Source: an uncultured archaeon A07HR60
Lineage (GTDB): Archaea > Halobacteriota > Halobacteria > Halobacteriales > Haloferacaceae
NCBI GenBank assembly: GCA_000496235.1
Contig: KI543222.1
Location: forward strand, 26,942-90,941
Reading direction: 5' to 3'
Length of the DNA: 64,000 nt
The notes under the pieces are model-generated. The model did no database searches. It was not told the origin of the DNA and worked only from the letters and a program-made list of their open reading frames with translations. Position numbers and translations under genes: made by a program. Positions 19,750 to 40,555 of this stretch are shown here, piece by piece. Positions within the stretch are counted from its first letter, which is position 1. Each line of letters begins with the position of its first letter.

Positions 19750-20721
19750 TCAGTCGGCGCGTGGGACGGAGATTTCAGGCAGTTCCGCTTCGATCTGTTC
19801 ACGACGGTCACCGAATTCCCCCGGTAATACGAGCTGCTCGCCCAGTTCGGCCATAGGTTCGTCAGACCCGTAACCCGGACCGTTAGTCGCGAGTTCAAAC
19901 AGGATGTCTCCGTGTTCTCGGAAGTACACAGAACGGAACCAGTGACGGTCGATCTGGCCGGTTGGTCTGAGGCCGTCAGTCTGCGCGATCTCACGCACTG
20001 CCGATTGGACCTCGTCGGTCGGTGTTTGGAAGGCGACGTGATGGACGGTGCCATGGCCCTGGCGGCCGCCCTCGATCGCCGGCACAACATCCACGTAGGT
20101 CCCCACCGGGCCCGCAGCCGCAAACCGGGTGCGGTCCCCGCTCGATGTATTGCTGTCTGCTGGTTCAGAGCCGGCTTCTTCGAGTCCCATCTTCTCGAGT
20201 AGAGTCTGTGTGGGCATCGGGTCAGCGAGCCACAGCGTCACCGAGTGGAACCCACGGATAGCCGCACGCTCAGGAACGAACTGCGTCCACGGCGTGGTCG
20301 GGTCATCATCCGGAATCGATGTGGCAACGAGCTCTACAGGGAGGCCGTCCGGGTCGCGGAAAGGGAGTACAGTCTCTTCGAAACGCTCGGTCCGGCCGTC
20401 GTACTCGACACCGTGCTCGTCGAAGCGAGCCTCCCAGAAGTCCAGACTCCCTTCCGGGACACGAAACGCCGTCCGAGAAACCTGTCCAGAGCCGATCTTG
20501 CCGTCGGCGATGTCTTCCCACGGGAAGAACGTCATACTCGTGCCTGGCGTCCCCTCGGCGTCGGCGAAAAAGAAGTGATAGGTGCTCGGGTCGTCCTGGT
20601 TGATCGAGCGCTTCACCAGCCGAAGACCGAGTGTCTCTGCCCAAAAATCTACATTCTGCTGGGGGTCACCAGCCACACACGTCACGTGATGAATACCGGG
20701 GGTCGAAGCCGTCTCTGTCAT
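19750..20721 (-). CDS. ring-cleaving dioxygenase, VOC (glyoxalase/bleomycin resistance) superfamily
   Basis: GIHHVTCVAGDPQQNVDFWAETLGLRLVKRSINQDDPSTYHFFFAD and a second VOC repeat GTVHHVAFQ. Confidence 0.75.
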   Translation of the reverse strand: MTETASTPGIHHVTCVAGDPQQNVDFWAETLGLRLVKRSINQDDPSTYHFFFADAEGTPGTSMTFFPWEDIADGKIGSGQVSRTAFRVPEGSLDFWEARFDEHGVEYDGRTERFEETVLPFRDPDGLPVELVATSIPDDDPTTPWTQFVPERAAIRGFHSVTLWLADPMPTQTLLEKMGLEEAGSEPADSNTSSGDRTRFAAAGPVGTYVDVVPAIEGGRQGHGTVHHVAFQTPTDEVQSAVREIAQTDGLRPTGQIDRHWFRSVYFREHGDILFELATNGPGYGSDEPMAELGEQLVLPGEFGDRREQIEAELPEISVPRAD

Positions 20722-20840
20722 AACTCATTGTATGACGCCAACCTACTTCAATTGGCGTTCGTTGGCTGGGATTCGATCGTCGGTGTTCTGGCCCCGCTCG
20801 AGTGAGTGTCCTGCCACGTCTTGATGCCAGCCCGTGGTTG

Positions 20841-20878
20841 ACCACCGTTTCCGCCTGAAGACGGGGATATGCGCTCGC
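20841..20878 (+). repeat. hairpin module, type A2
   Basis: ACCACCGTTTCCGCCTGAAGACGGGGATATGCGCTCGC. Confidence 0.5.
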
Positions 20879-20964
20879 AGTTTTGTGCCATCACGAGCGC
20901 AGATGCTTCTGAGTGTCTCGGATTGAGACCCCACTGGAGGGAGCCGTTACAGACCGCCAATATT

Positions 20965-20980
20965 TTTAGGTTAGCCTAAA
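20965..20980. promoter_or_regulatory. palindromic operator candidate TTTAGG-TTAG-CCTAAA, at -29 to -14 of the RGP-like gene start
   Basis: The 19-mer TTTTTAGGTTAGCCTAAAG is identical to the one at 26496-26514. Confidence 0.55.
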
Positions 20981-20993
20981 GACCCGGTGTACG

Positions 20994-22220
20994 ATGGGAG
21001 CGGAACGACCACAGCCGACAGAAGACATCTGTGTGATCGTGCCGACGGTCAGAGAGTACGACTGCCTCAGATCGTACGTCGCGAACGCCCGTGCCCAGGG
21101 GTTCGACACGTCGCGGCTGTATTTCCTGCTAGTCACCGAGAACTTCTGTGACACTGCGGCGATGCGCACCATGCTCGAAGAGCTAGACGTTGCGGGTGCG
21201 GTATTCGACGGATCACGCCGCCAACAGTGGTATCACGACAATGGCATCGGAGAGTACAGCCACGTCGTGCCCGCAGCCAGTCACGCAGAGACCAGCTTCG
21301 GGCTGTTATACATGTGGACCAACAGTCGATTCGAGTACGGTCTTTTCCTTGACGACGACACTCTCCCGCAGGAGGGGCGGGACTTCTTTGGTCGACATCT
21401 GCGGAATCTCGGCTTCACAGGCGATATTGAGTGTGTCACGTCTGACGAACACTGGGTGAACGTTCTGTACGATAGCGCCGACGACCACGGTCTCTACCCG
21501 CGTGGGTACCCGTACTCGGCTATGGGCGAGTCCGTAAAGACAGGGACGGCGACTCTCGGGACAGGAGACGTGGTCGCCTCGCAGGGATTGTGGACGAACG
21601 TGCCAGATCTCGATGCCGTCCGCATCCTCATGGACGGCGACCTCCAAGGGCAAGCGCAAACGCGGACGGCCGAGACGGACTACGGGTCCGACTTCGTCGC
21701 CGGCCAGGGCAACTATCTCACCGTCTGCTCGATGAACCTGGCTTTCCGGCGAGCCGTGATCCCGGCGTTTTACCAGCTCCCGATGGACGACAACGAGTGG
21801 GATGTCGGGCGGTTCGACGATATCTGGAGCGGGGTATTTCTCAAGCGGGCCTGCGACGTCGTGGGGGGCCGCATCTACACCGGCGAACCCCTCTGTCAGC
21901 ACAACAAGGCCGCTCGTTCGACGTTCGACGATCTTGCCAACGAGGCTGCGGGGCTAGAATTAAACGAACACCTGTGGAAACTGATCGATGATGTCGGCAG
22001 CGAGGCGACCGACTACGCCGGAGTGTTTCTGGCGATGGCGGACCGCCTCGCGGACGGAGACTTCGACAACTACCGGAACGGTGCGTTCCTGAACTACGTG
22101 GGCGAGCACATGCACGATTGGCTGGCGTGTCTGGATGCACTGGCCGGGCTCGACACGCTCGACAGCCAGGACACCCAACACCGGTCACCGCGGGCGGTCT
22201 CGTCGGCTGCAGACGACTGA
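20994..22220 (+). CDS. reversibly-glycosylated-polypeptide (RGP, GT75) family protein, UDP-sugar pyranose/furanose mutase-like
   Basis: ICVIVPTVRE, LFLDDDT, YPRGYPYS, GLWTNVPDLDA, CSMNLAFRR, GRFDDIWSGVFLKRACD and CQHNKAARSTFDDL are collinear with plant RGP1 motifs (recalled from memory). Confidence 0.7.
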   Translation: MGAERPQPTEDICVIVPTVREYDCLRSYVANARAQGFDTSRLYFLLVTENFCDTAAMRTMLEELDVAGAVFDGSRRQQWYHDNGIGEYSHVVPAASHAETSFGLLYMWTNSRFEYGLFLDDDTLPQEGRDFFGRHLRNLGFTGDIECVTSDEHWVNVLYDSADDHGLYPRGYPYSAMGESVKTGTATLGTGDVVASQGLWTNVPDLDAVRILMDGDLQGQAQTRTAETDYGSDFVAGQGNYLTVCSMNLAFRRAVIPAFYQLPMDDNEWDVGRFDDIWSGVFLKRACDVVGGRIYTGEPLCQHNKAARSTFDDLANEAAGLELNEHLWKLIDDVGSEATDYAGVFLAMADRLADGDFDNYRNGAFLNYVGEHMHDWLACLDALAGLDTLDSQDTQHRSPRAVSSAADD

Positions 22221-22251
22221 ATCGCTTGCTCACTGCCACGACACACAACAG

Positions 22252-23379
22252 ATGGACGACAATCAAACACCTAACGGACGGCATCGACGACAGATACTCG
22301 CGGCGACGGGTGCTGCGAGCGCGTTCGGACTCGCGGGCTGTCTGGGGTCGGTTCTCGACAGCGGCGAAGAAACAACCACCGACGTGACAATCGGGCAGAT
22401 CGGGTCCGGCCGGGACGGACGCGACGCCCCCGGCGGAACGCCGATGGGTGAAATGCCCGCTCTCGAGGGAGAACTCACCGTCTATTCAGGGCGGGGAGAG
22501 TTTCTCGTCGGCGATCTCTTGACCTATATCGATGAGTTGTACGACGATTTCACTCTGGTCCGGCGGTACGGCGGATCGACGGATCTGGTCAATCAGATTC
22601 TCAACGAGGGTAGTGGCTCTCCAGCAGACGTATTCTTCTCTGTCAACGCTGGGGCTCTCGGCACCCTCACCGACGAAGGCCGGACCCAGTCGCTCCCAGA
22701 CGACGTTCTGGAGACGGTCCGAGCGGAGTTCCGCACAGACGAGTGGATCGGGATCTCAGGCCGCGCTCGGGCAGTGCCGTTCAACACTGACGCGTATAAC
22801 CGCGCAGAAATGCCTGACAGCATCATGACGTATCCCGACTTCGCGGGCGATATTGGGTGGGCACCGTCTTACGGATCAGTACAAGCGTTCGTCACGGCCA
22901 TGCGCACGATCGAGGGCGAAGCGGCGACTCGAGAGTGGGTGCGCGGGATTGCCGATGGCGCGAAGACCTACCCCGACGAGTTGGCAGCCTGTCAGGCGAT
23001 TGCCGACGGGAGCATCGACGCGGCGTTCACGAATCACTACTACGTGCAACGCGTCCGTGACGCGAACCCTGGCGCTCCTCTCGCGACCCACTTCACCCAG
23101 GGCGACGCCGGAGCCGTCTTCAACGTGGCCGGTGCGGCGATTGTCGACGCGGCCGCCGACAGCGAACTGGCAGCCACCTTCGTACGTCACTTGTTATCGG
23201 CCGAAGCACAGGATTACTTCGCCCGGCGAAACTTCGAGTATCCCCTGATTCCGGGCGTCGAGCCCGTTGGAGATATTCCAACAATCGACGAACTGGACGT
23301 GCCGGATCTCGATTTGACCGTATTGTCAGACCTGGAACCGACAATCGATCTCATGCGGGACGAGGGCGTAGAGATTTAA
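22252..23379 (+). CDS. ABC transporter substrate-binding lipoprotein, Fe(III)/thiamine-type (FbpA-like), Tat signal
   Basis: RHRRQILAATGAASAFGLAGC Tat plus lipobox, and family-1 SBP core (LTVYSGRGEFLV, ADVFFSVNAG). Start moved to MDDNQT. Confidence 0.65.
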   Translation: MDDNQTPNGRHRRQILAATGAASAFGLAGCLGSVLDSGEETTTDVTIGQIGSGRDGRDAPGGTPMGEMPALEGELTVYSGRGEFLVGDLLTYIDELYDDFTLVRRYGGSTDLVNQILNEGSGSPADVFFSVNAGALGTLTDEGRTQSLPDDVLETVRAEFRTDEWIGISGRARAVPFNTDAYNRAEMPDSIMTYPDFAGDIGWAPSYGSVQAFVTAMRTIEGEAATREWVRGIADGAKTYPDELAACQAIADGSIDAAFTNHYYVQRVRDANPGAPLATHFTQGDAGAVFNVAGAAIVDAAADSELAATFVRHLLSAEAQDYFARRNFEYPLIPGVEPVGDIPTIDELDVPDLDLTVLSDLEPTIDLMRDEGVEI

Positions 23380-23400
23380 TCGCTCTTCCGGGCACATGAC

Positions 23401-25614
23401 ATGATCCGGACTGTCTTGTGGGCAACAATCGAGACGGTGACAGCGGCGCTGACTGCGGTGACGGCGGTGTTCCGGGGGTCAGGCCATGGCCGCGGAAAGC
23501 CAGCGCCACTGGCGATTGTAGCGGCGCTGGTCGCGGGGCTAGCCGGTGTCGCAGTGTTTGGACTCGCGGTCAGTGTGTTCCCGTATCACTCCAGTAACCA
23601 CGACGAAGCGGTCTATCTGATGCAAGCGGCGATGCTACTGGAAGGGCAGTTGGAACTGCACGTCGACAGTCTCACGGGCGCATTCCAGCCGTGGTTTTTC
23701 GTCGCGGACGGCGAACGGCTGTACCCGAAGTACACCCCCGTGCCCGCGGCTATGTTCGCCGGAGCGATGGCGTTGTTCGGAGAGCCACGCGTCACGTTAG
23801 CCGTCGTCACGGCGGCCAACACCGGGCTGGTCTACCTACTCGGCGTCATGGCATTTGACCGTCGTGTCGGCGTCTTAGCTGCGATACTGTTCGGGGCCGC
23901 ACCGCTCACCCTCGTGACCTCTTCAGTGTTTTTGCCGTACGCTCCGACGACGGCGCTCAATCTCGTGTTCGCCGTCGCCTATCTCCGCGGTGTACGCGAC
24001 GAATCTGTGGCAGCGGCGGCTGTCGCTGGCGTCGCAATCGGGGTGGCGTTTTTCGCGCGCCCGTACACAGCAGTGCTGTTTGCCGCTCCGTTCATTTTCC
24101 ACGCCGTCTATCGGGTCGTGAGCGCCGGCGACGGCTCACTCCAGCCAGTGCCAGACGCGATTCGCCGGAACGGGGTCACTGCGGCCATCGGGCTGCTATT
24201 CGTCGGGATCACACTGGCGTACAATCTCCGGATGACCGGGTCGGCCATGCTGTTCCCGTACGAAGCCTTCGCTCCGGCAGACGGCCCCGGATTCGGGCGC
24301 CGGCGCATCCTGGGTCACTCGATTGTGTACTCACCGGCCGTGGCACTCCGGGCGAACGCGCACGTGGTGTGGTACTTCGCGACTCGGTGGTTCACCGCTG
24401 GCCCCCTCGGCACGGGGCTGGCAGCGGTCGGCCTTGTGGCCACGATTCGCCGGTGGCATCACGGGAGTCTCACGGGCCAGCGAGGGGCCTCGGACCACCC
24501 GGTCGAGGGGGTCACTCGATTCCTGCTGGCGGGACTGTTCGTCAGCGTGATTGTCGGGAACCTGTTTTTCTGGGGCAATTACAATCTACTGGCCACGGTG
24601 ACAGATCCGACTGACGGGCTCATCTCTCAGTTCGGACCAGTCTATCACTTCGACCTTCTCGCCCCGCTGGCGGTGTTCGGAGCGGTCGGACTCGTCACCT
24701 GTCGAGAGCTGGTCTCACGGGCACGAGCAGCGCTCGGGCGACGACTCTCGCCGCAGGCCGCGAGAGCGGCGGTGATAGTGGTGATTCTGGCGGGCGTGCT
24801 AGTGGGTGGGGCAGCCAGTGCGGCGGTCGTCGCCGAACCACTTGAGCGGAACGGCGAGCACACGGCCAGATACGAGACGGCCTACGAACCTATTGAGAGT
24901 GGTTCCTTCGAGAAAGCACTGATTTTCGTTCCGACACCCTACGGCGACTGGCACGGCCATCCGTTCCAGTCGTTACGCAACGACCCCGGTTTCGACGGAT
25001 CTGCTGTCTACGCGCTTGACCGTGATGCAGCCGACGACTTTGCGGTCGTGGATGAGTTTCCCGAGCGCACGCCGTACCGATACACCTACCAGGGCGAGTG
25101 GACTCCTGAAGCTGCCCAACAGGTCGATCCCAAACTCGAACCGCTAGCGGTGAAGCGCGGGTCTAAACAGCGTTTCACCACCACGGTCGGAGTTCCAGAC
25201 CGGGTCGACCACGCTCGGGTCCGGCTGGAAACGACCAGTGGCGACGGCACAGTAAAACGGGCAATCGGCGAACCGGGCGACTCGCTGGCGATCGAGTGGA
25301 CCGCAGACGCCGACACCGTTCGCATGCCCGCAGCCGACGGGGACGACTCTCTGGAGTTGGTGGGGACCCAGACGGTCGTCCTCCAGGTGACACTCGTCCA
25401 GCCGGAGGGCGGAACACTCACCTACCGGCAAGAGGTGGCTCTCAGAAGTGGCTCGGCAACGTCAGGAGAGACGGTGGAGGTGGTGTGGCCGCCCGACCGG
25501 TACGTCTGCACTCTCGTGACAGACTGTGGGAACCGGGGAACATATCTCCCGGACGAACCGGATGCTCACCGCGACGGGGTTGAGTTCCGTACGCGCGTCG
25601 ACACTGTGGAGTGA
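23401..25614 (+). CDS. GT-C superfamily (PMT_2/ArnT-like) polyprenyl-phosphate-sugar-dependent glycosyltransferase with ~250-aa C-terminal extracytoplasmic domain
   Basis: About 12 TM segments. The first loop HSSNHDEAVYLMQAAML carries the acidic GT-C motif. Confidence 0.6.
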   Translation: MIRTVLWATIETVTAALTAVTAVFRGSGHGRGKPAPLAIVAALVAGLAGVAVFGLAVSVFPYHSSNHDEAVYLMQAAMLLEGQLELHVDSLTGAFQPWFFVADGERLYPKYTPVPAAMFAGAMALFGEPRVTLAVVTAANTGLVYLLGVMAFDRRVGVLAAILFGAAPLTLVTSSVFLPYAPTTALNLVFAVAYLRGVRDESVAAAAVAGVAIGVAFFARPYTAVLFAAPFIFHAVYRVVSAGDGSLQPVPDAIRRNGVTAAIGLLFVGITLAYNLRMTGSAMLFPYEAFAPADGPGFGRRRILGHSIVYSPAVALRANAHVVWYFATRWFTAGPLGTGLAAVGLVATIRRWHHGSLTGQRGASDHPVEGVTRFLLAGLFVSVIVGNLFFWGNYNLLATVTDPTDGLISQFGPVYHFDLLAPLAVFGAVGLVTCRELVSRARAALGRRLSPQAARAAVIVVILAGVLVGGAASAAVVAEPLERNGEHTARYETAYEPIESGSFEKALIFVPTPYGDWHGHPFQSLRNDPGFDGSAVYALDRDAADDFAVVDEFPERTPYRYTYQGEWTPEAAQQVDPKLEPLAVKRGSKQRFTTTVGVPDRVDHARVRLETTSGDGTVKRAIGEPGDSLAIEWTADADTVRMPAADGDDSLELVGTQTVVLQVTLVQPEGGTLTYRQEVALRSGSATSGETVEVVWPPDRYVCTLVTDCGNRGTYLPDEPDAHRDGVEFRTRVDTVE

Positions 25615-25698
25615 TGATGGCAACGGTAGTCAGACAACCACCGATTCGGCACTGTTTAAGTTAGATTCAGGAGTGCTGGCAAGCCAGCAAAGCAGCTG

Positions 25699-26490
25699 TC
25701 ACCGGAGCTGCTCGCGGAGAGAGACCGTCAGAATCGACTTTGCGATTGCGGCTCCACCCCGAATAGGAGCGAGTTTGGTCTCGCCGGCCCGCTCACGATA
25801 TTCGATCGGTTGTTCACGGACCGAGTAGCCGCGAATCAGCGGCCGAAGTAACAGCTCCGCAGAGAGCCCGGTGTTTTCGGTCCACTCGATGGACTCGATC
25901 ACTTCGCGACGATACGCGCGCATCCCGGTGGTCGTGTCGTGAACCCGACGGCCCACCAGAGCACTCGCCAGCACTGCGAACAATCGGTTCCCCAGGCGAT
26001 TGAGCGCCGGCATCGCGTCCGGACTCTGAGAGAGTCGGTCGCCACTGACGACATCAGCGCCGTCGTTGATTGCATCGAGAAACTCCGGCAACTGCTCCAT
26101 GGGATACGTATCGTCACAGTCGGTGGTCACAATCACGGGCCGATCGGCAGCCAGAATCGCTTCCCGGACCGCGACGCCGTAGCCTTGTGGTGATTGCTCG
26201 ATGACTCGGGCGCCGTGGTCGCGGGCGATTGCTGGCGTCTGGTCCGACGAGCCGTCCACGCAGACGACCTCCGCCTGGCCGCCGGTAACCGTCTCGATGT
26301 CTGACAACACCGTGTCGATAGCCGCCTCCTCGTTGTACGTCCCCATGACGACACTCAGGTCCTCGAAGCTGTAGTGGGGCGTCTCGGCTGCACTGGCAGT
26401 CTCTCCGTCCGGAGCCGCTCGTGCCGGCGGGTCTGCCGTGGCCGAGGAGGGTTCACCACTCATCACTACCCCTGTATCGACCGCCGCCAC
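25699..26490 (-). CDS. GT2 family dolichyl-phosphate sugar synthase (DPM1/AglD-like)
   Basis: VVMGTYNEEAAIDTVLSDI, VVCVDGSSDQT, TTDCDDTYP. GTG start at 26490 is favoured because it places the palindrome at the same offset as at 28796. Confidence 0.75.
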   Translation of the reverse strand: MAAVDTGVVMSGEPSSATADPPARAAPDGETASAAETPHYSFEDLSVVMGTYNEEAAIDTVLSDIETVTGGQAEVVCVDGSSDQTPAIARDHGARVIEQSPQGYGVAVREAILAADRPVIVTTDCDDTYPMEQLPEFLDAINDGADVVSGDRLSQSPDAMPALNRLGNRLFAVLASALVGRRVHDTTTGMRAYRREVIESIEWTENTGLSAELLLRPLIRGYSVREQPIEYRERAGETKLAPIRGGAAIAKSILTVSLREQLR

Positions 26491-26497
26491 TTGAGTT

Positions 26498-26513
26498 TTT
26501 AGGTTAGCCTAAA
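26498..26513. promoter_or_regulatory. palindromic operator candidate TTTAGG-TTAG-CCTAAA, at -23 to -8 of the GT2 gene start
   Basis: Lies in the 39-nt gap between the GMC stop and the GT2 start. 19/19 identical to site 1. Confidence 0.55.
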
Positions 26514-26529
26514 GCACTGTCGACTACGG

Positions 26530-28224
26530 TCACAGGGACCGTTCGATGGCGTTGGCAGCACGCAGTGCAAGCGCGGCGATCGTCAGTGTGGGGTTCATCG
26601 CCCCGGCAGCGGGAAAGACACTGCTGGAAACGACCCAACAGTTCTGCAGGTCGTGGGTGCTGAGTTGAGGGTCAACGACGCTCGCGGTGGGGTCGGTCCC
26701 CATTCGGGTGGTCCCCATGTGATGGTACGCAGGCCCGGTGTTGTCGGGGCCTACCTGCCAGGTGATCTCGACGCCGAGTTCCTCGAGAATCTGCCGCTGG
26801 ATTTCGTTCGCGCGTTCGAGCGTTCGTAACGCGCGGTCGTCGACGCTCCAGTGGACATCTGGCACTGGGTTGCCGTGGTCGTCGGTGCGGTCAGGATCCA
26901 GCCCAATGTAGCTGTCTTTGCGGGGCAGTTGTTCGACGAGCGCGCCCATACCGATGGCGGTCCCGTACTCGCCCTGCAGCCGCTCGAGTAACGCGTCACC
27001 CCAGTCGTCGCCCCGGAGGGCAGACTCCACCGGCGAGGGGCCGTCGTAGTTGAAAAACTCGAGTTTGAACGGCGCAATATTCGTGTCCGCCTCGTCGTAG
27101 AACTGGTCAGAACCGCTCGTGTAGAAGCCGACGTGATTCTGTCGGGTGGGTTCGTCCAATTCACCACCCATACCCGCGAACAGGTGGTCCATGAAGAACT
27201 TTCCAACCAGTCCGCTGGAGTTGGCCAACCCATCGGGGTGGCTATCCGACGCCGACAACAGGAGGAGCCGCGGCGTCTCGACGCCACCACAGGCGACGAC
27301 GAACGTCTCTGCTTTCTGGCGGTGGGTGGTGCCGTCGGGTGTGACGTATCTGGCAGCTGTGACCCGGCTGTCGGTGTGTTCGAGCCGCTGGACGGGCGCG
27401 CTACTGATCACCGTTGCCCCTCGAGACTCGGCGCGGTCGATGTGTACCGTAGCGTCGTACTTCGCGCCGGACGGGCAGACTGGCTGACAGGTCCCGTATC
27501 CCGCACAGGCAGCCCGATCGTCGTAGGCTTCTGAGTTGCGCGCGTTCGGGACCGAGTGCATGTCGATTTCGAGTTCCTCACACGCTTCGGCGAACAGCGA
27601 ATCACTGTAAGACGGCTCGAACGCCGTCATCGGATACGGCTCCTCGCGGGAAGGACCGTACGGATTGTCGGCTGCGCCGGCCACGCCCAGCTCGCGCTCG
27701 GCCGCCGCGTAGTGGGGACGAAGTTCCTCGTAGTCGATTGGCCAGTCGACACCGACACCCCGCTGGCTCGCGGAGTTGAAGTCGGCTTCGTGGAGCCGCA
27801 TCACCATCCCCTGCCAGTGTAGTGTCGACCCCCCGATTCCCTTCACCCGGGCGTGGTTCAGCGGGTACTCTCGCTCTCCAGACGCCGAGTGTGCGTCACG
27901 CTGGCCACCCATGTCCCAGACGTCAGGCTGCCCGAATGCGGGTCTGAGTGCCCGCTCCTGACGGGTGAGCCGGCTTGCCGAGTCGAAGCGAGGACCGGCG
28001 TCCAGTACCACCACCTCGTGGGTTTCCGCCAGTCGATCGGCTATCAGTCCGCCGGCTGGGCCTGCCCCGATCACGCAGACGTCCGTACCCGATACCGGTG
28101 TACGGTCCAGGTTCGCGGGCTCGTCTCGCAGCGGGATCTGTTGACCTCCGGTGGAGGGTCCTGACCCAGGCCTGGAAGATTCGGTCTGGGAACGTGACTC
28201 CGGACCGAATTCGTAGTTGCTCAT
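26530..28224 (-). CDS. GMC family FAD-dependent oxidoreductase (large flavoprotein subunit)
   Basis: DVCVIGAGPAGGLIADRL FAD motif and C-terminal GMC signature HHMGTTRMG. Confidence 0.8.
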   Translation of the reverse strand: MSNYEFGPESRSQTESSRPGSGPSTGGQQIPLRDEPANLDRTPVSGTDVCVIGAGPAGGLIADRLAETHEVVVLDAGPRFDSASRLTRQERALRPAFGQPDVWDMGGQRDAHSASGEREYPLNHARVKGIGGSTLHWQGMVMRLHEADFNSASQRGVGVDWPIDYEELRPHYAAAERELGVAGAADNPYGPSREEPYPMTAFEPSYSDSLFAEACEELEIDMHSVPNARNSEAYDDRAACAGYGTCQPVCPSGAKYDATVHIDRAESRGATVISSAPVQRLEHTDSRVTAARYVTPDGTTHRQKAETFVVACGGVETPRLLLLSASDSHPDGLANSSGLVGKFFMDHLFAGMGGELDEPTRQNHVGFYTSGSDQFYDEADTNIAPFKLEFFNYDGPSPVESALRGDDWGDALLERLQGEYGTAIGMGALVEQLPRKDSYIGLDPDRTDDHGNPVPDVHWSVDDRALRTLERANEIQRQILEELGVEITWQVGPDNTGPAYHHMGTTRMGTDPTASVVDPQLSTHDLQNCWVVSSSVFPAAGAMNPTLTIAALALRAANAIERSL

Positions 28225-28796
28225 TGCGGGCCTGTTGTGTAACTCTCGGTCCCGCCTGGGTGTCCGCGGGGGTTCTCCAGGCCGACCAACTCACCGCCGG
28301 TGGGGGATGCGTACAACGCTATCAACAGCTCGTTGATCAGGAAGTAGCGCACTCGTTCGGCAGTGGTGCCGTCCGGATTTTCTTCTGCAGTGTCGGCCCC
28401 GACATCCCGAAGTAAGCGATTCCGGGTCCCCGGCGAGAGTTCTGACACTCGATTTCCATGCCAGGCTTGACCTCGGTCGTCGAGTTCCACAACCGTCTCA
28501 CGGATCCCCCGCGCGTGATCCGTGCCAGTCAAGCGACCGGCGAGAAACCCCTCGACGAACGCTTCGATTCCGGTCACCTCCGAGGGGTAAACGACCTCTG
28601 CAAGCGCCGTCAGCGTCGCGTACACCCGCTCGTCGTCCGGGAGCCCATCGCCGCCGCCCTCACCGCCGGTAACGGTAGGCGTCGCGTCTGTGTTGTCGTC
28701 GTCGTGGTCGCGGAGACGCCGGCCTGCCAGCACGGCCCCCCCAGAGGCGCCGACCGCCGCGAGTGCGGCCGCGGCATCGCGTCTCGTCAACTCCAT
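28221..28796 (-). CDS. gluconate 2-dehydrogenase subunit 3-like small subunit with twin-arginine signal
   Basis: MELTRRDAAAALAAVGASGG. ATGA overlap with the GMC gene. Confidence 0.6.
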   Translation of the reverse strand: MELTRRDAAAALAAVGASGGAVLAGRRLRDHDDDNTDATPTVTGGEGGGDGLPDDERVYATLTALAEVVYPSEVTGIEAFVEGFLAGRLTGTDHARGIRETVVELDDRGQAWHGNRVSELSPGTRNRLLRDVGADTAEENPDGTTAERVRYFLINELLIALYASPTGGELVGLENPRGHPGGTESYTTGPQ

Positions 28797-28803
28797 ACAG
28801 TGT

Positions 28804-28819
28804 TTTAGGCAAACCTAAA
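28804..28819. promoter_or_regulatory. palindromic operator candidate TTTAGG-CAAA-CCTAAA in a 40-nt divergent promoter region, at -23 to -8 of the small-subunit gene
   Basis: Same arms and same offset as site 2. A TTATAT TATA-like element sits at 28823-28828. Confidence 0.5.
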
Positions 28820-28836
28820 TCCTTATATCCGTCGGA

Positions 28837-30492
28837 GTGGTGACTCCGGATACGATACTTGCTCGCTCAGAGCGAGCGTTTCGACCCATGAGTTGGACAC
28901 GTGATATCGCTGATTCTGTCTCCGACGGAGAGTACCCGCTCGGATTAACCCTGATCAGCGGCGCGATCGCCGCAACACTCGTGTTCCCGCTATCTTGGCT
29001 GGTCATCGAGGCTGTCACCGTCGACAAGGGCCGAGCCTGGGAGTTACTGTTCAGCGTGCGAACCGCGGACGTATTGGCGAACAGTCTCTGGCTGATGATC
29101 GGTGTGACCGTGAGTTCAGTTCTCCTTGGGGTTCCGTTGGCGTATCTCACGGCTCGCACGGATCTGCCATTTCGCCGGTTCTGGTCGGTCGTCGCTGCAC
29201 TCCCGCTGGTCGTGCCCAGTTATGTCGGCGCGTTCGCGTTCGTGTCTGCGTTCGGTCCGCAGGGAGAGTTTCACACTCTCTTGGCTCCGCTCGGAGTCGG
29301 GCGGGTCCCGGAGATGTCCGGGCTGGCTGGCGCGGTGTTCGTTATCACACTGTACACATATCCGTACGTGTATCTGACAACGCGGGCAGCACTGTTGTCC
29401 TTCGACACGCAGCTGATCGAAGCTGCCCGGACTCTCAATCACGGACGCTGGGACGTATTCCGGCGAGTGACACTGCCACAGACGCGGCCGGCGATCGCTG
29501 CCGGGGCGCTATTGACAGCACTGTACGCCGTTTCCGACTTCGGAACACCCTCGATCATGCGGGTCCCGGTGTTCACCCGGCAGATATTTGTCGAGTACAA
29601 TGCCTTCGGGCAAGATTATGCGGCCCTCTTATCGCTCCAACTCCTGGCGGTCGTGTTGGTGGTGTTAGCGCTGGAGCGACAGATTCGGCCCGACCAGACC
29701 GTGCAGGGTGATGATGCTGACCAGGGAGCCAATCGGGTTCAGTTAGGCGGTTGGCGGTGGCCAGCCACGCTCCTGCCCGCAGCCGTGTCGGCAGTCGCAC
29801 TGGCCGTCCCGGTGTGGATCCTGTCGCTGTGGCTCCGACGAAGCACCGTCGCCCGGCGACCGTCAATGGCGTTCGAGTGGATTCAGGTCGCTAATTCCGT
29901 CTCGGTCGCGCTGGCGGCCGCCACCGTCGCGTCGGTAGTGGCGATTCCAATCGCGTATTTCGCCGCCAATCACGACTCCCGGCTGGCGGCGCTGTTCGAA
30001 CGGACGACCTACGTCGGCTTTGCCGTCCCAGGAATCGTCCTTGCGCTGGCGCTTGTCTACTTCGGCGCCGGCTATCTCCCGTGGATTTACCAGACGCTGC
30101 CTTTACTCGTGTTTGCGTACGTAGTCCGATTCGTCCCTCAGGTGGTCGGCTCGGCCCGGACATCAATCCTTCAGGTGGATCCGCAACTCGTCGAGGCAAG
30201 CCGGACGCTTGGCCAGTCATCACTGGGTGCGTTCAGACGGGTGACACTGCCACTCGTCCGGTCTGGCATCATCGCGGGCGCCGCACTCGTGTTCTTGACG
30301 ACGATGAAAGAGCTGCCAGCGACACTCGTGTTACGCCCCTCAGGGTTCGACACTATTGTCACGCAGATCTGGCGAGCCCAAGAAACGGCCCTGTATCAGT
30401 ACGCCGCCGTTCCTGCGCTCCTCTTGCTGGGCATTTCTGGAATCTCTATGGCTGTGCTCCTCGCTCAAGAAGGCGGAGAGCGGGGACTGTGA
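28837..30492 (+). CDS. ABC transporter permease, fused two-domain Fe(III)-type (FbpB-like)
   Basis: Two 6-TM halves each with an EAA-like loop (TLPQTRPAIAAGALL; TLPLVRSGIIAGAAL). Start is GTG 28837 or ATG 28888. Confidence 0.7.
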   Translation: MVTPDTILARSERAFRPMSWTRDIADSVSDGEYPLGLTLISGAIAATLVFPLSWLVIEAVTVDKGRAWELLFSVRTADVLANSLWLMIGVTVSSVLLGVPLAYLTARTDLPFRRFWSVVAALPLVVPSYVGAFAFVSAFGPQGEFHTLLAPLGVGRVPEMSGLAGAVFVITLYTYPYVYLTTRAALLSFDTQLIEAARTLNHGRWDVFRRVTLPQTRPAIAAGALLTALYAVSDFGTPSIMRVPVFTRQIFVEYNAFGQDYAALLSLQLLAVVLVVLALERQIRPDQTVQGDDADQGANRVQLGGWRWPATLLPAAVSAVALAVPVWILSLWLRRSTVARRPSMAFEWIQVANSVSVALAAATVASVVAIPIAYFAANHDSRLAALFERTTYVGFAVPGIVLALALVYFGAGYLPWIYQTLPLLVFAYVVRFVPQVVGSARTSILQVDPQLVEASRTLGQSSLGAFRRVTLPLVRSGIIAGAALVFLTTMKELPATLVLRPSGFDTIVTQIWRAQETALYQYAAVPALLLLGISGISMAVLLAQEGGERGL

Positions 30493-30662: not shown

Positions 30663-30986
30663 TCAGGGATAGCGATCGATAATGACCCTGATGCTTGGTC
30701 CATACAGGACGACTACTCGGCACCCCTGGAAGTTGAACTCGACTGACGGGCGGAAGGTGCTGTCATCGTTGGCTTTGGTTTTGAATAGCCCGTCCAGTTT
30801 GTCGGCGTCGACAAATTCCCAGAGCGGTGGAGACGTCGACAGTTCAGACCACTGGTCGATTGCCTCCGTCACCGTCGACGTGACAGCGTCTGACACCTTG
30901 ACCGGACGGTCGTACCGTCTCACAAGCTCTGTTTCAGTCGTGTACCCAGGGGTTTTCTCTAGCTCGTTGTCTTGATGTTGGCTCAT
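30663..30986 (-). CDS. HalOD1 output-domain protein
   Basis: PPLWEFVDADKLDGLF ... VEFNFQGCRVVVLYGPSIRVI, typical HalOD1 pattern. Confidence 0.6.
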   Translation of the reverse strand: MSQHQDNELEKTPGYTTETELVRRYDRPVKVSDAVTSTVTEAIDQWSELSTSPPLWEFVDADKLDGLFKTKANDDSTFRPSVEFNFQGCRVVVLYGPSIRVIIDRYP

Positions 30987-31500: not shown

Positions 31501-31572
31501 AGCCTAGGCCGGAATTTGAATCCGGGGTCTCGTCCTTACCAAGGACGCGCTTTACCACTAAGCTACCCAGGC
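31501..31572 (-). tRNA. tRNA-Thr (anticodon GGU)
   Basis: Hand-folded cloverleaf: acceptor GCCTGGG/CCTAGGC, anticodon arm CGTCC-TTGGTAA-GGACG, T arm CCGGA-TTCAAAT-TCCGG. Confidence 0.85.
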
Positions 31573-34900: not shown

Positions 34901-34973
34901 CGTCCTGACGGAGATTTGAACTCCGGTCCCTGGCTCCGCAAGCCAAGAGGATAGTCCACTACCCTACCAGGAC
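34901..34973 (-). tRNA. tRNA-Arg (anticodon GCG)
   Basis: Hand-folded: acceptor GTCCTGG/TCAGGAC, anticodon arm TTGGC-TTGCGGA-GCCAG, T arm CGGAG-TTCAAAT-CTCCG. Confidence 0.8.
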
Positions 34974-36805: not shown

Positions 36806-36902
36806 TTAGCCGTCGCCGATTGTTCTCGCGGCATGATATCGGCCGAACGGCCGAATCCACCCGATAAAAAAGGTTATACGACGCACGGACGCCAAAGTGT
36901 GT

Positions 36903-37334
36903 ATGAGTGTCGAGCTGCCGTTCGCCCCCGTCGATCAGGTCATCCGGCGGAATGCGGGGAATCTCCGGGTAAGTGCTGACGCTGCAGAGGAGCTGGCGCG
37001 ACGGATCCAAGCTCACGGCGCGGAGTTGACGAAAGAAGCCGCCGAGCAAGCGACAGGAAATGGCCGCAAAACACTGATGGCGGCCGACTTCGGAGTGGAA
37101 CAGGTGATTGACCGTGAGGAACTGACACTCCCAATCGCACCAGTGGACCGGATAGCCAGACTACGTATCGGTGACCAGTATCGTGTGGGCATGAGTGCCC
37201 GGATCGCGCTGGCTGATATCCTCGAAGACTATGCCGACAGTGTGGCAGCCGCAGCCGCGCGGCTGGCGAGACATGCCGACCGGCGAACGGTCCAGGCGGA
37301 AGACATCGAGACCTACTTTGATCTGTTCCAGTAA
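36903..37334 (+). CDS. hpyA: archaeal histone, fused doublet (two histone folds)
   Basis: ELPFAPVDQVIRR... and LPIAPVDRIARLR... duplicated histone-fold starts. Confidence 0.8.
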   Translation: MSVELPFAPVDQVIRRNAGNLRVSADAAEELARRIQAHGAELTKEAAEQATGNGRKTLMAADFGVEQVIDREELTLPIAPVDRIARLRIGDQYRVGMSARIALADILEDYADSVAAAAARLARHADRRTVQAEDIETYFDLFQ

Positions 37335-38326
37335 TGCAGTTTGGCTACACTGAGCACTGTCTCGAACACGACACCGGTCCCCGGCACCCGGAGACGGCCG
37401 ACCGATTGCAGGCGATTCGTGAAGGGCTTAAGCAACGGTATGAGGTGGTGTATCGCGAGCCAGAGTTATCTTCACGTGAGGCCATCAGACAGGTCCACGA
37501 CCCAAGCTACGTCCAAGATGTAGAATCGTTTTGTCGGGACGGGGGTGGCAAGTGGGACGCTGATACCATCGCCAGCGAGGCGACCTGGGAGGCAGCACTT
37601 GCTGCCGCCGGATTGGCCGAGTGGGCCGCCAAGACCGCCCTTGAGGGGGCAAGCGGCCGGAAAACCCCATTCGCGCTTGGGCGACCACCGGGTCATCACG
37701 CCGTCTTCGACGACGCGATGGGATTTTGCTTTTTCAATAATACTGCTGTCGCCGCAGAATCAGCACTCGAAAGTAGCGCCGACAGTGTGGCAATCATCGA
37801 CTGGGATGTCCACCACGGAAACGGGACTCAGGACCTGTTTTATGACCGGAACGACGTGTTTTACGCCTCGATTCACGAAGAAGGGTTATATCCCGGAACT
37901 GGTGAGGCGAACGAGACAGGCACTGGCGTTGGCGAGGGGGCGAACCTGAACGTTCCTCTCCCATCGGGCGTCCCTGACTCCGGGTACCTGCACGTTATCG
38001 AGGAAGTGATTGTCCCTGCGTTCGACCGATTTGACCCCGACCTACTACTGGTGTCTGCTGGCTTCGACGCCCACCAGCAAGACCCGATCTCTCGGATGCA
38101 TCTGTCGACAGAAGGATACGCACTTCTGACAGACCGGCTTCGACGACTGGGAGTCCCGACGGGCTATGTGCTGGAAGGCGGATATGGCCTGGAAACGCTG
38201 GCGGACGGCGTCGCGATGGTACACGAAACCTTCGACGGTCGTGACCCAATCGTCCCGGACGGTGACCCGAACCGTGACATCGTGGATCTCACCGCAACCC
38301 TCCGTGAGGAGTTTGGGCTCGACTGA
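37334..38326 (+). CDS. hdaI: histone deacetylase family (class II HDAC/acetoin-utilisation type)
   Basis: GRPPGHHA, DWDVHHGNGTQ, GFDAH, EGGY. Start overlaps the histone stop by 1 nt. Confidence 0.85.
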   Translation: MQFGYTEHCLEHDTGPRHPETADRLQAIREGLKQRYEVVYREPELSSREAIRQVHDPSYVQDVESFCRDGGGKWDADTIASEATWEAALAAAGLAEWAAKTALEGASGRKTPFALGRPPGHHAVFDDAMGFCFFNNTAVAAESALESSADSVAIIDWDVHHGNGTQDLFYDRNDVFYASIHEEGLYPGTGEANETGTGVGEGANLNVPLPSGVPDSGYLHVIEEVIVPAFDRFDPDLLLVSAGFDAHQQDPISRMHLSTEGYALLTDRLRRLGVPTGYVLEGGYGLETLADGVAMVHETFDGRDPIVPDGDPNRDIVDLTATLREEFGLD

Positions 38327-40187: not shown

Positions 40188-40260
40188 GCCGGAGTAGCTC
40201 AGTTGGTAGAGCGCCTCGCTGTTAACGAGGCGGTCCCAGGTTCGAGTCCTGGCTCTGGCG
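40188..40260 (+). tRNA. tRNA-Asn (anticodon GUU)
   Basis: Hand-folded: GCCGGAG acceptor, CCTCG-CTGTTAA-CGAGG, CCAGG-TTCGAGT-CCTGG. Confidence 0.85.
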
Positions 40261-40451: not shown

Positions 40452-40555
40452 GGGCCCTTAGCTCAGTCTGGTCCAGAGCACCCGGCTCATATCGGTTCCC
40501 GGACACGGGGCCGTGGGACACCGGGCGGTCGCTGGTTCGAATCCTGCAGGGCCCA
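40452..40555 (+). tRNA. tRNA with CAU anticodon (Met or Ile2) carrying a 28-nt intron at 40492-40519
   Basis: Acceptor GGGCCCT/AGGGCCC. The anticodon stem CCCGG...CCGGG is interrupted after CTCATA. T arm GCTGG-TTCGAAT-CCTGC has one T-T mismatch. Confidence 0.75.

Follow-up and report, generated by a model that had tools for sequence, protein, structure and literature searches.

Which regulator, if any, recognises a palindrome that recurs at the promoters of a single gene cluster in the uncultured haloarchaeon A07HR60? The stretch analysed here is 64 kb of its genome (contig KI543222.1, positions 26,942 to 90,941; hereafter the window), and the cluster encodes an RGP-family protein, an FbpA-type ferric-iron binding protein, a GT-C-type glycosyltransferase, a GT2-family glycosyltransferase, the large and small subunits of a GMC-family dehydrogenase, and an ABC permease. 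An earlier, sequence-only reading had proposed that the palindrome TTTAGG-N4-CCTAAA defines a seven-gene regulon of a DtxR-family metalloregulator of unspecified type. We find that the three copies of the palindrome are very probably operators of the organism's orthologue of TroR, a DtxR-family iron-sensing transcription factor. The regulon reading is thereby supported and sharpened to TroR, the paralogue for which there is direct evidence, over Idr or SirR.

Scanning the window for TTTAGG-N4-CCTAAA gave exactly three matches, compared with a mean of 0.00 in 100 dinucleotide-preserving shuffles, and a chance origin is excluded. Operator 1 (20965-20980, TTTAGGTTAGCCTAAA) lies upstream of the RGP-like gene. 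Operator 2 (26498-26513, again TTTAGGTTAGCCTAAA) serves the minus-strand GT2 gene; it falls within the 39 nt that separate the GMC stop codon (26530) from the GT2 open reading frame (ORF). Operator 3 (28804-28819, TTTAGGCAAACCTAAA) stands between two divergent genes, that of the small subunit on the minus strand and that of the permease on the plus strand. All three have perfect TTTAGG and CCTAAA arms around a 4-nt spacer, and all three are intergenic, 8-35 nt before start codons. No site was added by allowing 1-2 mismatches or spacers of 0-12 nt, and allowing 3 mismatches added one chance-level match at 2541. The palindrome therefore occurs, as had been claimed, three times and nowhere else in the window, each time at a promoter of one cluster. 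The longer sequence TTTTTAGGTTAGCCTAAAG, present at 20963-20981 and 26496-26514, is the same at 19/19 bases with different flanking bases, and the third copy reads TTTTAGGCAAACCTAAA (28803-28819). The 19/19 identity is real; the special meaning given to it is not borne out, as across species the spacer varies and only the arms and the flanking T/A are kept.

The window sites match the operator of TroR from Haloferax volcanii (Hfx. volcanii). Chromatin immunoprecipitation with sequencing (ChIP-seq) of this protein yielded the semi-palindrome TTTAGGC-NNN-CCTAAAANAN (MEME id TTTAGGCHDRCCTAAAANAW; Martinez Pastor et al., Nucleic Acids Res 2024; PMC10783522), and mutating both motif copies at one promoter in a reporter abolished iron-dependent repression (PMC10783522). 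The window sites share with TTTAGGCHDRCCTAAAANAW the TTTAGG/CCTAAA arms, the 4-nt spacer, the 6-4-6 geometry and the A-rich 3′ tail, and the 16-mer of operators 1 and 2, TTTAGGTTAGCCTAAA, is itself a listed TroR motif instance at HVO_1464 (PMC10783522). It had been a worry that 6-4-6 departs from the 9-1-9 layout of the bacterial iron box; this can be set aside, since the archaeal TroR site has 6-4-6 as its native geometry.

The genes downstream correspond as well. The RGP gene of Hfx. volcanii DS2 (CP001956.1, 1565815-1566972) has the exact coordinates of HVO_1704; after it come HVO_1705 (FbpA type), a permease, an ATPase and a GT-C gene. These coordinates establish HVO_1704 to 1708 as orthologues of window genes, with HVO_1708, annotated GT39, the positional counterpart of the window GT-C gene. 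By its family match, HVO_1613 would be the orthologue of the window GT2 gene; the NCBIfam model concerned, NF041391, was presumably built on HVO_1613. HVO_1293 and HVO_1294 are probable orthologues of the small-subunit and GMC genes, going by annotation, size and the overlapping gene pair.

TroR occupies these promoters in Hfx. volcanii. The ChIP-seq peaks include peak 23 at HVO_1704 (1565600-1565999), peak 24 at HVO_1705 (1566800-1567399), peak 22 at HVO_1613 (GT2), and peak 20 at HVO_1293, a protein with a twin-arginine translocation (Tat) signal adjoining the GMC oxidoreductase HVO_1294 (preprint supplement of PMC10783522). Within peak 23 we find the site TTTTGGGTTGCCTAAA 13 nt before HVO_1704 (L083:9974-9987 in our numbering of loci), and within peak 24 a site 8 nt before the ATG of HVO_1705 (L083:11259-11272); the motif at HVO_1613 is TTTTGGTAAACCTAAAAGTT (PMC10783522). 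Deletion of troR with iron present raised HVO_1704, HVO_1708, HVO_1613 and HVO_1294 by log2 fold changes of +1.57, +1.42, +1.21 and +1.30, respectively, and in the parent strain HVO_1294 rose by +2.09 without versus with iron (PMC10783522). HVO_1704 and HVO_1613 stand as entries 21 and 20 in the TroR regulon rated as high-confidence (PMC10783522). Occupancy and mutant response are thus found at the orthologues of the RGP/FbpA and GT2 genes, and at those of the small-subunit/GMC pair as identified by annotation and gene order. The targets are alike in the two organisms (RGP HVO_1704, the ferric ABC genes from HVO_1705 onward, GT-C HVO_1708, GT2 HVO_1613 and probably HVO_1293/1294); however, the window genes form one contiguous cluster whereas those of Hfx. 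volcanii are split over three loci, and the window FbpA gene has lost the site of its own that HVO_1705 has. From these correspondences we infer that TroR binds and that its loss of binding de-represses the cluster in the window organism, with the same direction of control, repression when iron is present.

DtxR paralogues number three or four in haloarchaea and have similar DNA-binding domains, and the motif alone does not discriminate which of them binds in the window organism. A paralogue of the Idr or SirR type, responding mainly to manganese or another metal and not to iron, could therefore occupy the sites. We consider this improbable: the protein detected by ChIP-seq at the orthologous Hfx. 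volcanii promoters is TroR, the genes are de-repressed in the troR deletion (PMC10783522), the SirR peaks, among the rows listed, lie at other loci on pHV4, and the cluster encodes a ferric-iron binding protein. Because an FbpA-type protein is included, the gene content as a whole fits an iron regulon and supports TroR as the regulator.

Most of the cluster genes encode carbohydrate-active enzymes and no regulator encoded nearby decides the question, which raises a second alternative, a dedicated regulator outside the DtxR family, for example a sugar sensor, that controls the glycosylation and dehydrogenase genes. This is very unlikely, as in Hfx. volcanii the same motif, bound by TroR, controls siderophore synthesis, Fe-hydroxamate transporters, dpsA and idr (PMC10783522), and the gene orders examined show no conserved transcription factor gene beside the cluster.

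The evidence for TroR operators extends well beyond three sites in one window. We collected 83 orthologous loci (1.58 Mb, ~19 named genera), mostly one genome per species (80 loci) plus two Hfx. volcanii loci, and counted perfect TTAGG-N4-CCTAA sites relative to the expectation from base composition. There are 303 such sites where 0.4 are expected; 278 fall inside the cluster and 25 in the 810 kb of flanking DNA. The genes keep their order to a high degree, and the order in the window (RGP-FbpA-GT-C, GT2-GMC-small subunit, permease) is one common arrangement. The Halorubrum lipolyticum and Haloterrigena alkaliphila loci have the same cluster with 5 sites each, one per transcription unit. Sequence comparison thus indicates that the element is deeply conserved across the class Halobacteria.

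The conservation is specific to particular genes and to particular distances. Allowing ≤1 mismatch and measuring from the end of the site to the first in-frame ATG, a site is found upstream of RGP in 85/85 cases (usually 12-14 nt away), of FbpA in 72/84 (3-8 nt), of GT2 in 61/61 (33-34 nt), of the small subunit in 49/59 (7-9 nt for 44/49 sites) and of a flippase-like gene in 45/45. The internal genes encoding GMC, GT-C and the ATPase have no site upstream in any locus at the same threshold. The window distances of 14 nt (RGP), 35 nt (GT2) and 8 nt (small subunit) all fit the orthologue classes; for RGP, the core 14-mer has a 12-14 nt gap in 57/85 orthologues and stands 14 nt before ATG 20994 in the window. 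The HVO_1704 and HVO_1705 sites, at 13 and 8 nt, are equally typical of their classes. The flippase-like gene, of the LPG_synthase_TM family, precedes RGP with its own site in 45 loci; it is absent from the whole window, where RGP is preceded instead by a glyoxalase-family gene on the opposite strand (19750-20993).

The make-up of the site indicates what recognises it. A frequency matrix of 291 distinct orthologous sites gives the consensus tTTAGGYnnRCCTAAAanA, in which the base preceding TTAGG is T in 258/291 and the base following CCTAA is A in 282/291. The flanking T/A and the A-rich tail lie outside the criteria by which the sites were selected, and the conservation of the flanking T/A therefore makes the arms six bases long. 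The spacer begins with C or T and mostly ends in G or A; otherwise it is variable across species. At its outer positions, pairable combinations number 182 compared with ~184 under independence. That the arms are invariant and do not co-vary speaks for a dimeric DNA-binding protein and against an RNA structure.

An RNA hairpin before each gene, acting as a processing, stability or translation signal, was the other candidate for such a symmetrical element, and it deserves next to no credence. A 6-bp stem with a 4-nt loop could form at -5 to -6 kcal/mol, and some sites lie between co-directional genes where read-through would transcribe them, such as the one between the flippase-like and RGP genes in locus L001. 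However, these structures are weak, with z-scores from -1.6 to -3 and only 1/4 standing out from shuffled sequences; compensatory changes are lacking, and no Rfam model matches at the sites (the four tRNAs being the only Rfam matches in the window). In addition, the site is the same whichever strand the gene is on, it is found before first genes and in divergent promoters, and a DNA-binding protein has been demonstrated experimentally in Hfx. volcanii (PMC10783522). We therefore rejected the hairpin.

Operators of a repressor would be expected to overlap the basal promoter, and the geometry of the sites is consistent with this. At the small-subunit gene, the TATA-like element ATATAA (28823-28828, minus strand) spans -32 to -27 of the start codon, directly upstream of operator 3; it presumably acts as the TATA box, and the consensus of 35 small-subunit promoters is GGATATAa.AgT-TTAGG. 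Across species, the oriented consensus sequences of the small-subunit, FbpA and flippase-like promoter classes have, 3-10 nt upstream of the site, a TATA-like element (ATATAA, TAAAA or TTATATT); in the RGP and GT2 promoters it is the T/A-rich arm itself that occupies the TATA position, and there it probably doubles as the TATA box. In the window, the left arm of operator 1 with the preceding T-run (ATATTTTTA, 20960-20968) is likely to be the TATA box of the RGP-like gene, and the sole TATA-like sequence at the GT2 promoter is the gene-proximal arm with its A-run (CCTAAAAA). Of all the alternatives to TroR, a generic haloarchaeal promoter element, that is, a variant of the TATA box or of the transcription factor B recognition element (BRE) without a specific regulator, is the one that these TATA-like arms with their T/A-rich flanks might suggest, but it is barely credible given that only 3 sites occur in a 64-kb window of roughly 60 genes, that the motif, far from being common at unrelated promoters as would count against specific control, numbers 25 in 810 kb outside the cluster against 278 inside, that the small-subunit, FbpA and flippase-like promoters have a separate upstream TATA-like element, and that the sites outside the cluster concentrate on few ORF types (380-394 aa and 178-231 aa).

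The start codon of the GT2 gene needs revision. The longest GT2 ORF of the window begins at GTG 26490, which had been taken as the start. Among GT2 orthologues, the first in-frame ATG lies 33-34 nt past the site in 52/61, compared with 35 nt in the window, and an in-frame GTG at this point is not conserved; the true start is thus probably ATG 26463. The positions assigned to the sites (-29 to -14 of ATG 20994, and -23 to -8 of both GTG 26490 and ATG 28796) are arithmetically correct, but with ATG 26463 as the start the coincidence of a -23 to -8 position at two genes no longer holds. With CCTAAAAA as the sole TATA-like sequence and ~35 nt from operator to start, a short 5′ leader is implied for GT2. 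The third site had also been said to serve the divergent permease gene. It does lie in the divergent region, 69 nt from the permease start, and in 35/66 loci an equivalent site precedes a divergent permease, usually at ~93-95 nt; control of the permease by this site is probable.

Leaderless transcripts are common in haloarchaea, so an operator this close to a start codon would either overlap the TATA box or separate it from the transcription start. A repressor that prevents initiation would be expected to bind in just such a place, and the start sites and steric mechanism that follow from this arrangement suggest a simple scheme. When iron is sufficient, a metal-loaded TroR dimer would sit on TTTAGG-N4-CCTAAA with one helix-turn-helix domain per arm. 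At the small-subunit gene it would lie downstream of the TATA box, ahead of the start of what is probably a leaderless transcript, and at the RGP-like and GT2 genes over the TATA-like element itself; in either position, bound TroR would block assembly of the transcription machinery. Three or four units would be silenced in this way: RGP-FbpA-GT-C, GT2, the small subunit with the GMC dehydrogenase, and probably the divergent permease. Under iron scarcity, TroR would leave the DNA and the cluster would be expressed.

Several observations weigh against TroR control. As the sequence-only reading had noted, the cluster contains no regulator gene; we found no DtxR-family gene there and no DtxR-family domain among the 40 window ORFs scanned, a scan outside which several larger ORFs lie. 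Because troR is widespread in Halobacteria, we assume that the source genome carries it. The expression changes in Hfx. volcanii are modest (~2.3- to 3-fold), and TroR activates at least one target, dpsA, so that repression is not automatic (PMC10783522). The orthology of HVO_1293/1294 with the dehydrogenase genes stands as probable on the grounds given above, and the transcription start sites at these promoters are presumed positions. Finally, the TroR motif is typically ~100 nt upstream of start codons (PMC10783522, abstract), and the window sites are within 50 nt. HVO_1704, HVO_1705 and the whole gene family depart from the published ~100 nt, with the Hfx. volcanii sites 8-13 nt before the ATG.

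The bacterial DtxR/IdeR iron box shows how close the TroR operators stand to the wider family. Its consensus had been given correctly as TTAGGTTAGCCTAACCTAA, and the core of operators 1 and 2, TTAGG-TTAG-CCTAA, does equal the first 14 nt. The two kinds of site serve the same regulator family, with TTAGG and CCTAA pentamers recognised in both, but the iron box is a 19-bp 9-1-9 palindrome and the archaeal site a 16-bp 6-4-6 one, and positions 15-19 of the iron box (CCTAA) are unmatched at operators 1 and 2 (AGACC and AGCAC). The 14-base identity is partly luck, because the spacer varies among haloarchaea. Positions 1-14 of the bacterial consensus read TTAGG-N4-CCTAA, and positions 6-19 nearly repeat this motif. 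According to White et al. 1998 and to the IdeR-DNA structures, two dimers reportedly occupy the 19-bp iron box; the double motif fits such binding, which would make the archaeal 16-bp site the equivalent of a single-dimer unit. A literal bacterial iron box was rejected as a description of the window sites, given the mismatch at positions 15-19 and the other spacers of operator 3 and the orthologous sites. The window site works like an iron box and is outside its definition.

An archaeal precedent for operators at the TATA box is MDR1 of Archaeoglobus fulgidus (Bell et al. 1999), which is said to be a metal-dependent DtxR-family repressor studied in vitro, with operators at or downstream of the TATA box that reportedly keep polymerase from being recruited to the promoter of a metal ABC transporter operon. 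MDR1 and the window sites are alike in having a metal-dependent repressor and TATA-adjacent operators and differ in operator sequence and lineage.

Using Pfam, NCBIfam and PDB sequence searches, we identified the seven genes that these operators appear to control. The RGP-like gene (20994-22220, plus strand) opens the unit RGP-FbpA-GT-C and encodes a 408-aa arabinopyranose-mutase-like protein (Pfam PF03214) that is about 75% (~70-78%) identical to orthologues throughout Halobacteria (closest named orthologue ~76%). The next gene (22252-23379, plus strand) encodes a 375-aa lipoprotein with a Tat signal and a lipobox; its matches to PDB 7w3w (E=4e-53) and 4elo (E=5e-46) and to Pfam SBP_bac_8/6/11 bear out the earlier identification of an Fe(III)-type binding protein and make it FbpA type. 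A scan of the preceding intergenic region (22221-22251) found no site, so this gene must rely here on the RGP promoter. The unit ends with the GT-C-type membrane glycosyltransferase (23401-25614, plus strand; 737 aa; PMT_2 and DUF7846 in Pfam), which has no match in PDB or NCBIfam. The RGP-like protein and the small subunit likewise have no NCBIfam match.

On the minus strand, GT2 (25699-26463, 254 aa from the conserved ATG; Pfam PF00535) scores 390 bits against the NF041391 equivalog of haloarchaeal dolichyl-phosphate hexose transferases, above the cut-off of 375. The GMC-family FAD (flavin adenine dinucleotide) dehydrogenase large subunit (26530-28224, minus strand; 564 aa; Pfam GMC_oxred_N/C) is closest in PDB to the large subunits of membrane-bound FAD glucose (8hdd) and fructose (7w2j) dehydrogenases (E ~1e-77). 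Its gene is overlapped by 4 nt by that of the small subunit (28221-28796, minus strand; 191 aa; Gluconate_2-dh3 family, Pfam PF13618), whose Tat signal is visible as a twin-arginine N-terminus in the translation. The GMC relatives are three-subunit FAD dehydrogenases; here and in related loci the partner is the Tat-signal small subunit only, and no cytochrome subunit gene lies within the cluster. The permease (28888-30492, plus strand; 534 aa) has two fused BPD_transp_1 domains (Pfam) in an FbpB/ThiP-like architecture, with PhnU2/ThiP-type NCBIfam matches that all fall below cut-off.

Altogether, seven genes of an uncultured haloarchaeon can be assigned with good confidence to the response to iron starvation, and the TroR operator, worked out in a single model species, applies throughout the class Halobacteria. 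The conserved TroR-controlled module comprises an FbpABC-type ferric importer, GT2, a PMT-like GT-C enzyme, an RGP-like mutase or transglycosylase, a flippase-like protein and a Tat-exported FAD sugar dehydrogenase. In ~19 genera, synteny and a common operator thus tie a ferric-iron ABC importer to enzymes of lipid-linked glycosylation and to a secreted sugar dehydrogenase, a coupling that is unexplained and suggests an unexplored step in archaeal iron acquisition. Earlier publications already contain both the TroR motif and, in supplementary tables only, the regulon membership of these gene families; the text of that paper does not discuss the glycosylation and dehydrogenase targets (PMC10783522). 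The iron-starvation proteome paper on Hfx. volcanii does not mention these genes, the iron-network paper on Halobacterium salinarum gives no motif, and we found nothing in the literature on the RGP family in haloarchaea or in connection with iron.

Tentatively, and with rather more doubt than belief, we suggest that the parts of the module form one previously uncharacterised iron-acquisition machine. One possibility is that a surface glycoconjugate or an oxidised sugar-acid product captures or reduces Fe(III) for FbpA; another is that the FbpA lipoprotein needs glycosylation by the GT-C enzyme to work. The published regulon data contain these genes but do not discuss a role for them in iron uptake.

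Sites outside the cluster mark further genes. A first partition of the loci gave 18 such sites, of which 8/18 precede ORFs of 380-394 aa (two Pfam-confirmed as Peripla_BP_2, the iron-siderophore type), 9/18 precede ORFs of 178-231 aa (two Pfam-confirmed as DUF7547) and 1/18 precedes a GFO/IDH/MocA oxidoreductase. In Haloarcula loci, single or tandem TroR-type sites (L070:6788 and 6823, L074:6822, L076:6785 and 6820, L078:6822, L080:6813 and L081:6819) precede, by 6-43 nt, a lipoprotein gene that is located ~3 kb away from the cluster, with the L070 and L078 proteins assigned to Peripla_BP_2. By this family assignment, the Haloarcula sites are independent support for the motif as a mark of iron-uptake genes. 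In Salinibaculum and Haloarculaceae loci, conserved sites with an extended tail (TTAGGcaCCCCTAAAaTTAAAA; L062:7041, L068:7048, L069:7025, L071:3429, L073:7616, L074:87, L075:7041, L078:1765 and L081:1827) lie 30-126 nt upstream of a gene for an acidic ~190-aa protein, which is DUF7547 in L062 and L074. The DUF7547 gene may be an uncharacterised member of the iron regulon.

Other features of the window lie beyond the cluster. A gene for a small HalOD1 (halobacterial output domain) protein is found just downstream of the permease gene (30663-30986, minus strand), with no evident regulatory partner. Further on (36897-38326), a histone-deacetylase-family gene comes immediately after one for an archaeal histone, which has two histone-fold matches; the stop and start codons of the two share one base. 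Rfam identifies tRNA genes at 31501-31572, 34901-34973, 40188-40260 and 40452-40555; the last match is 104 nt long against a 71-position model, suggesting an intron-bearing tRNA gene.

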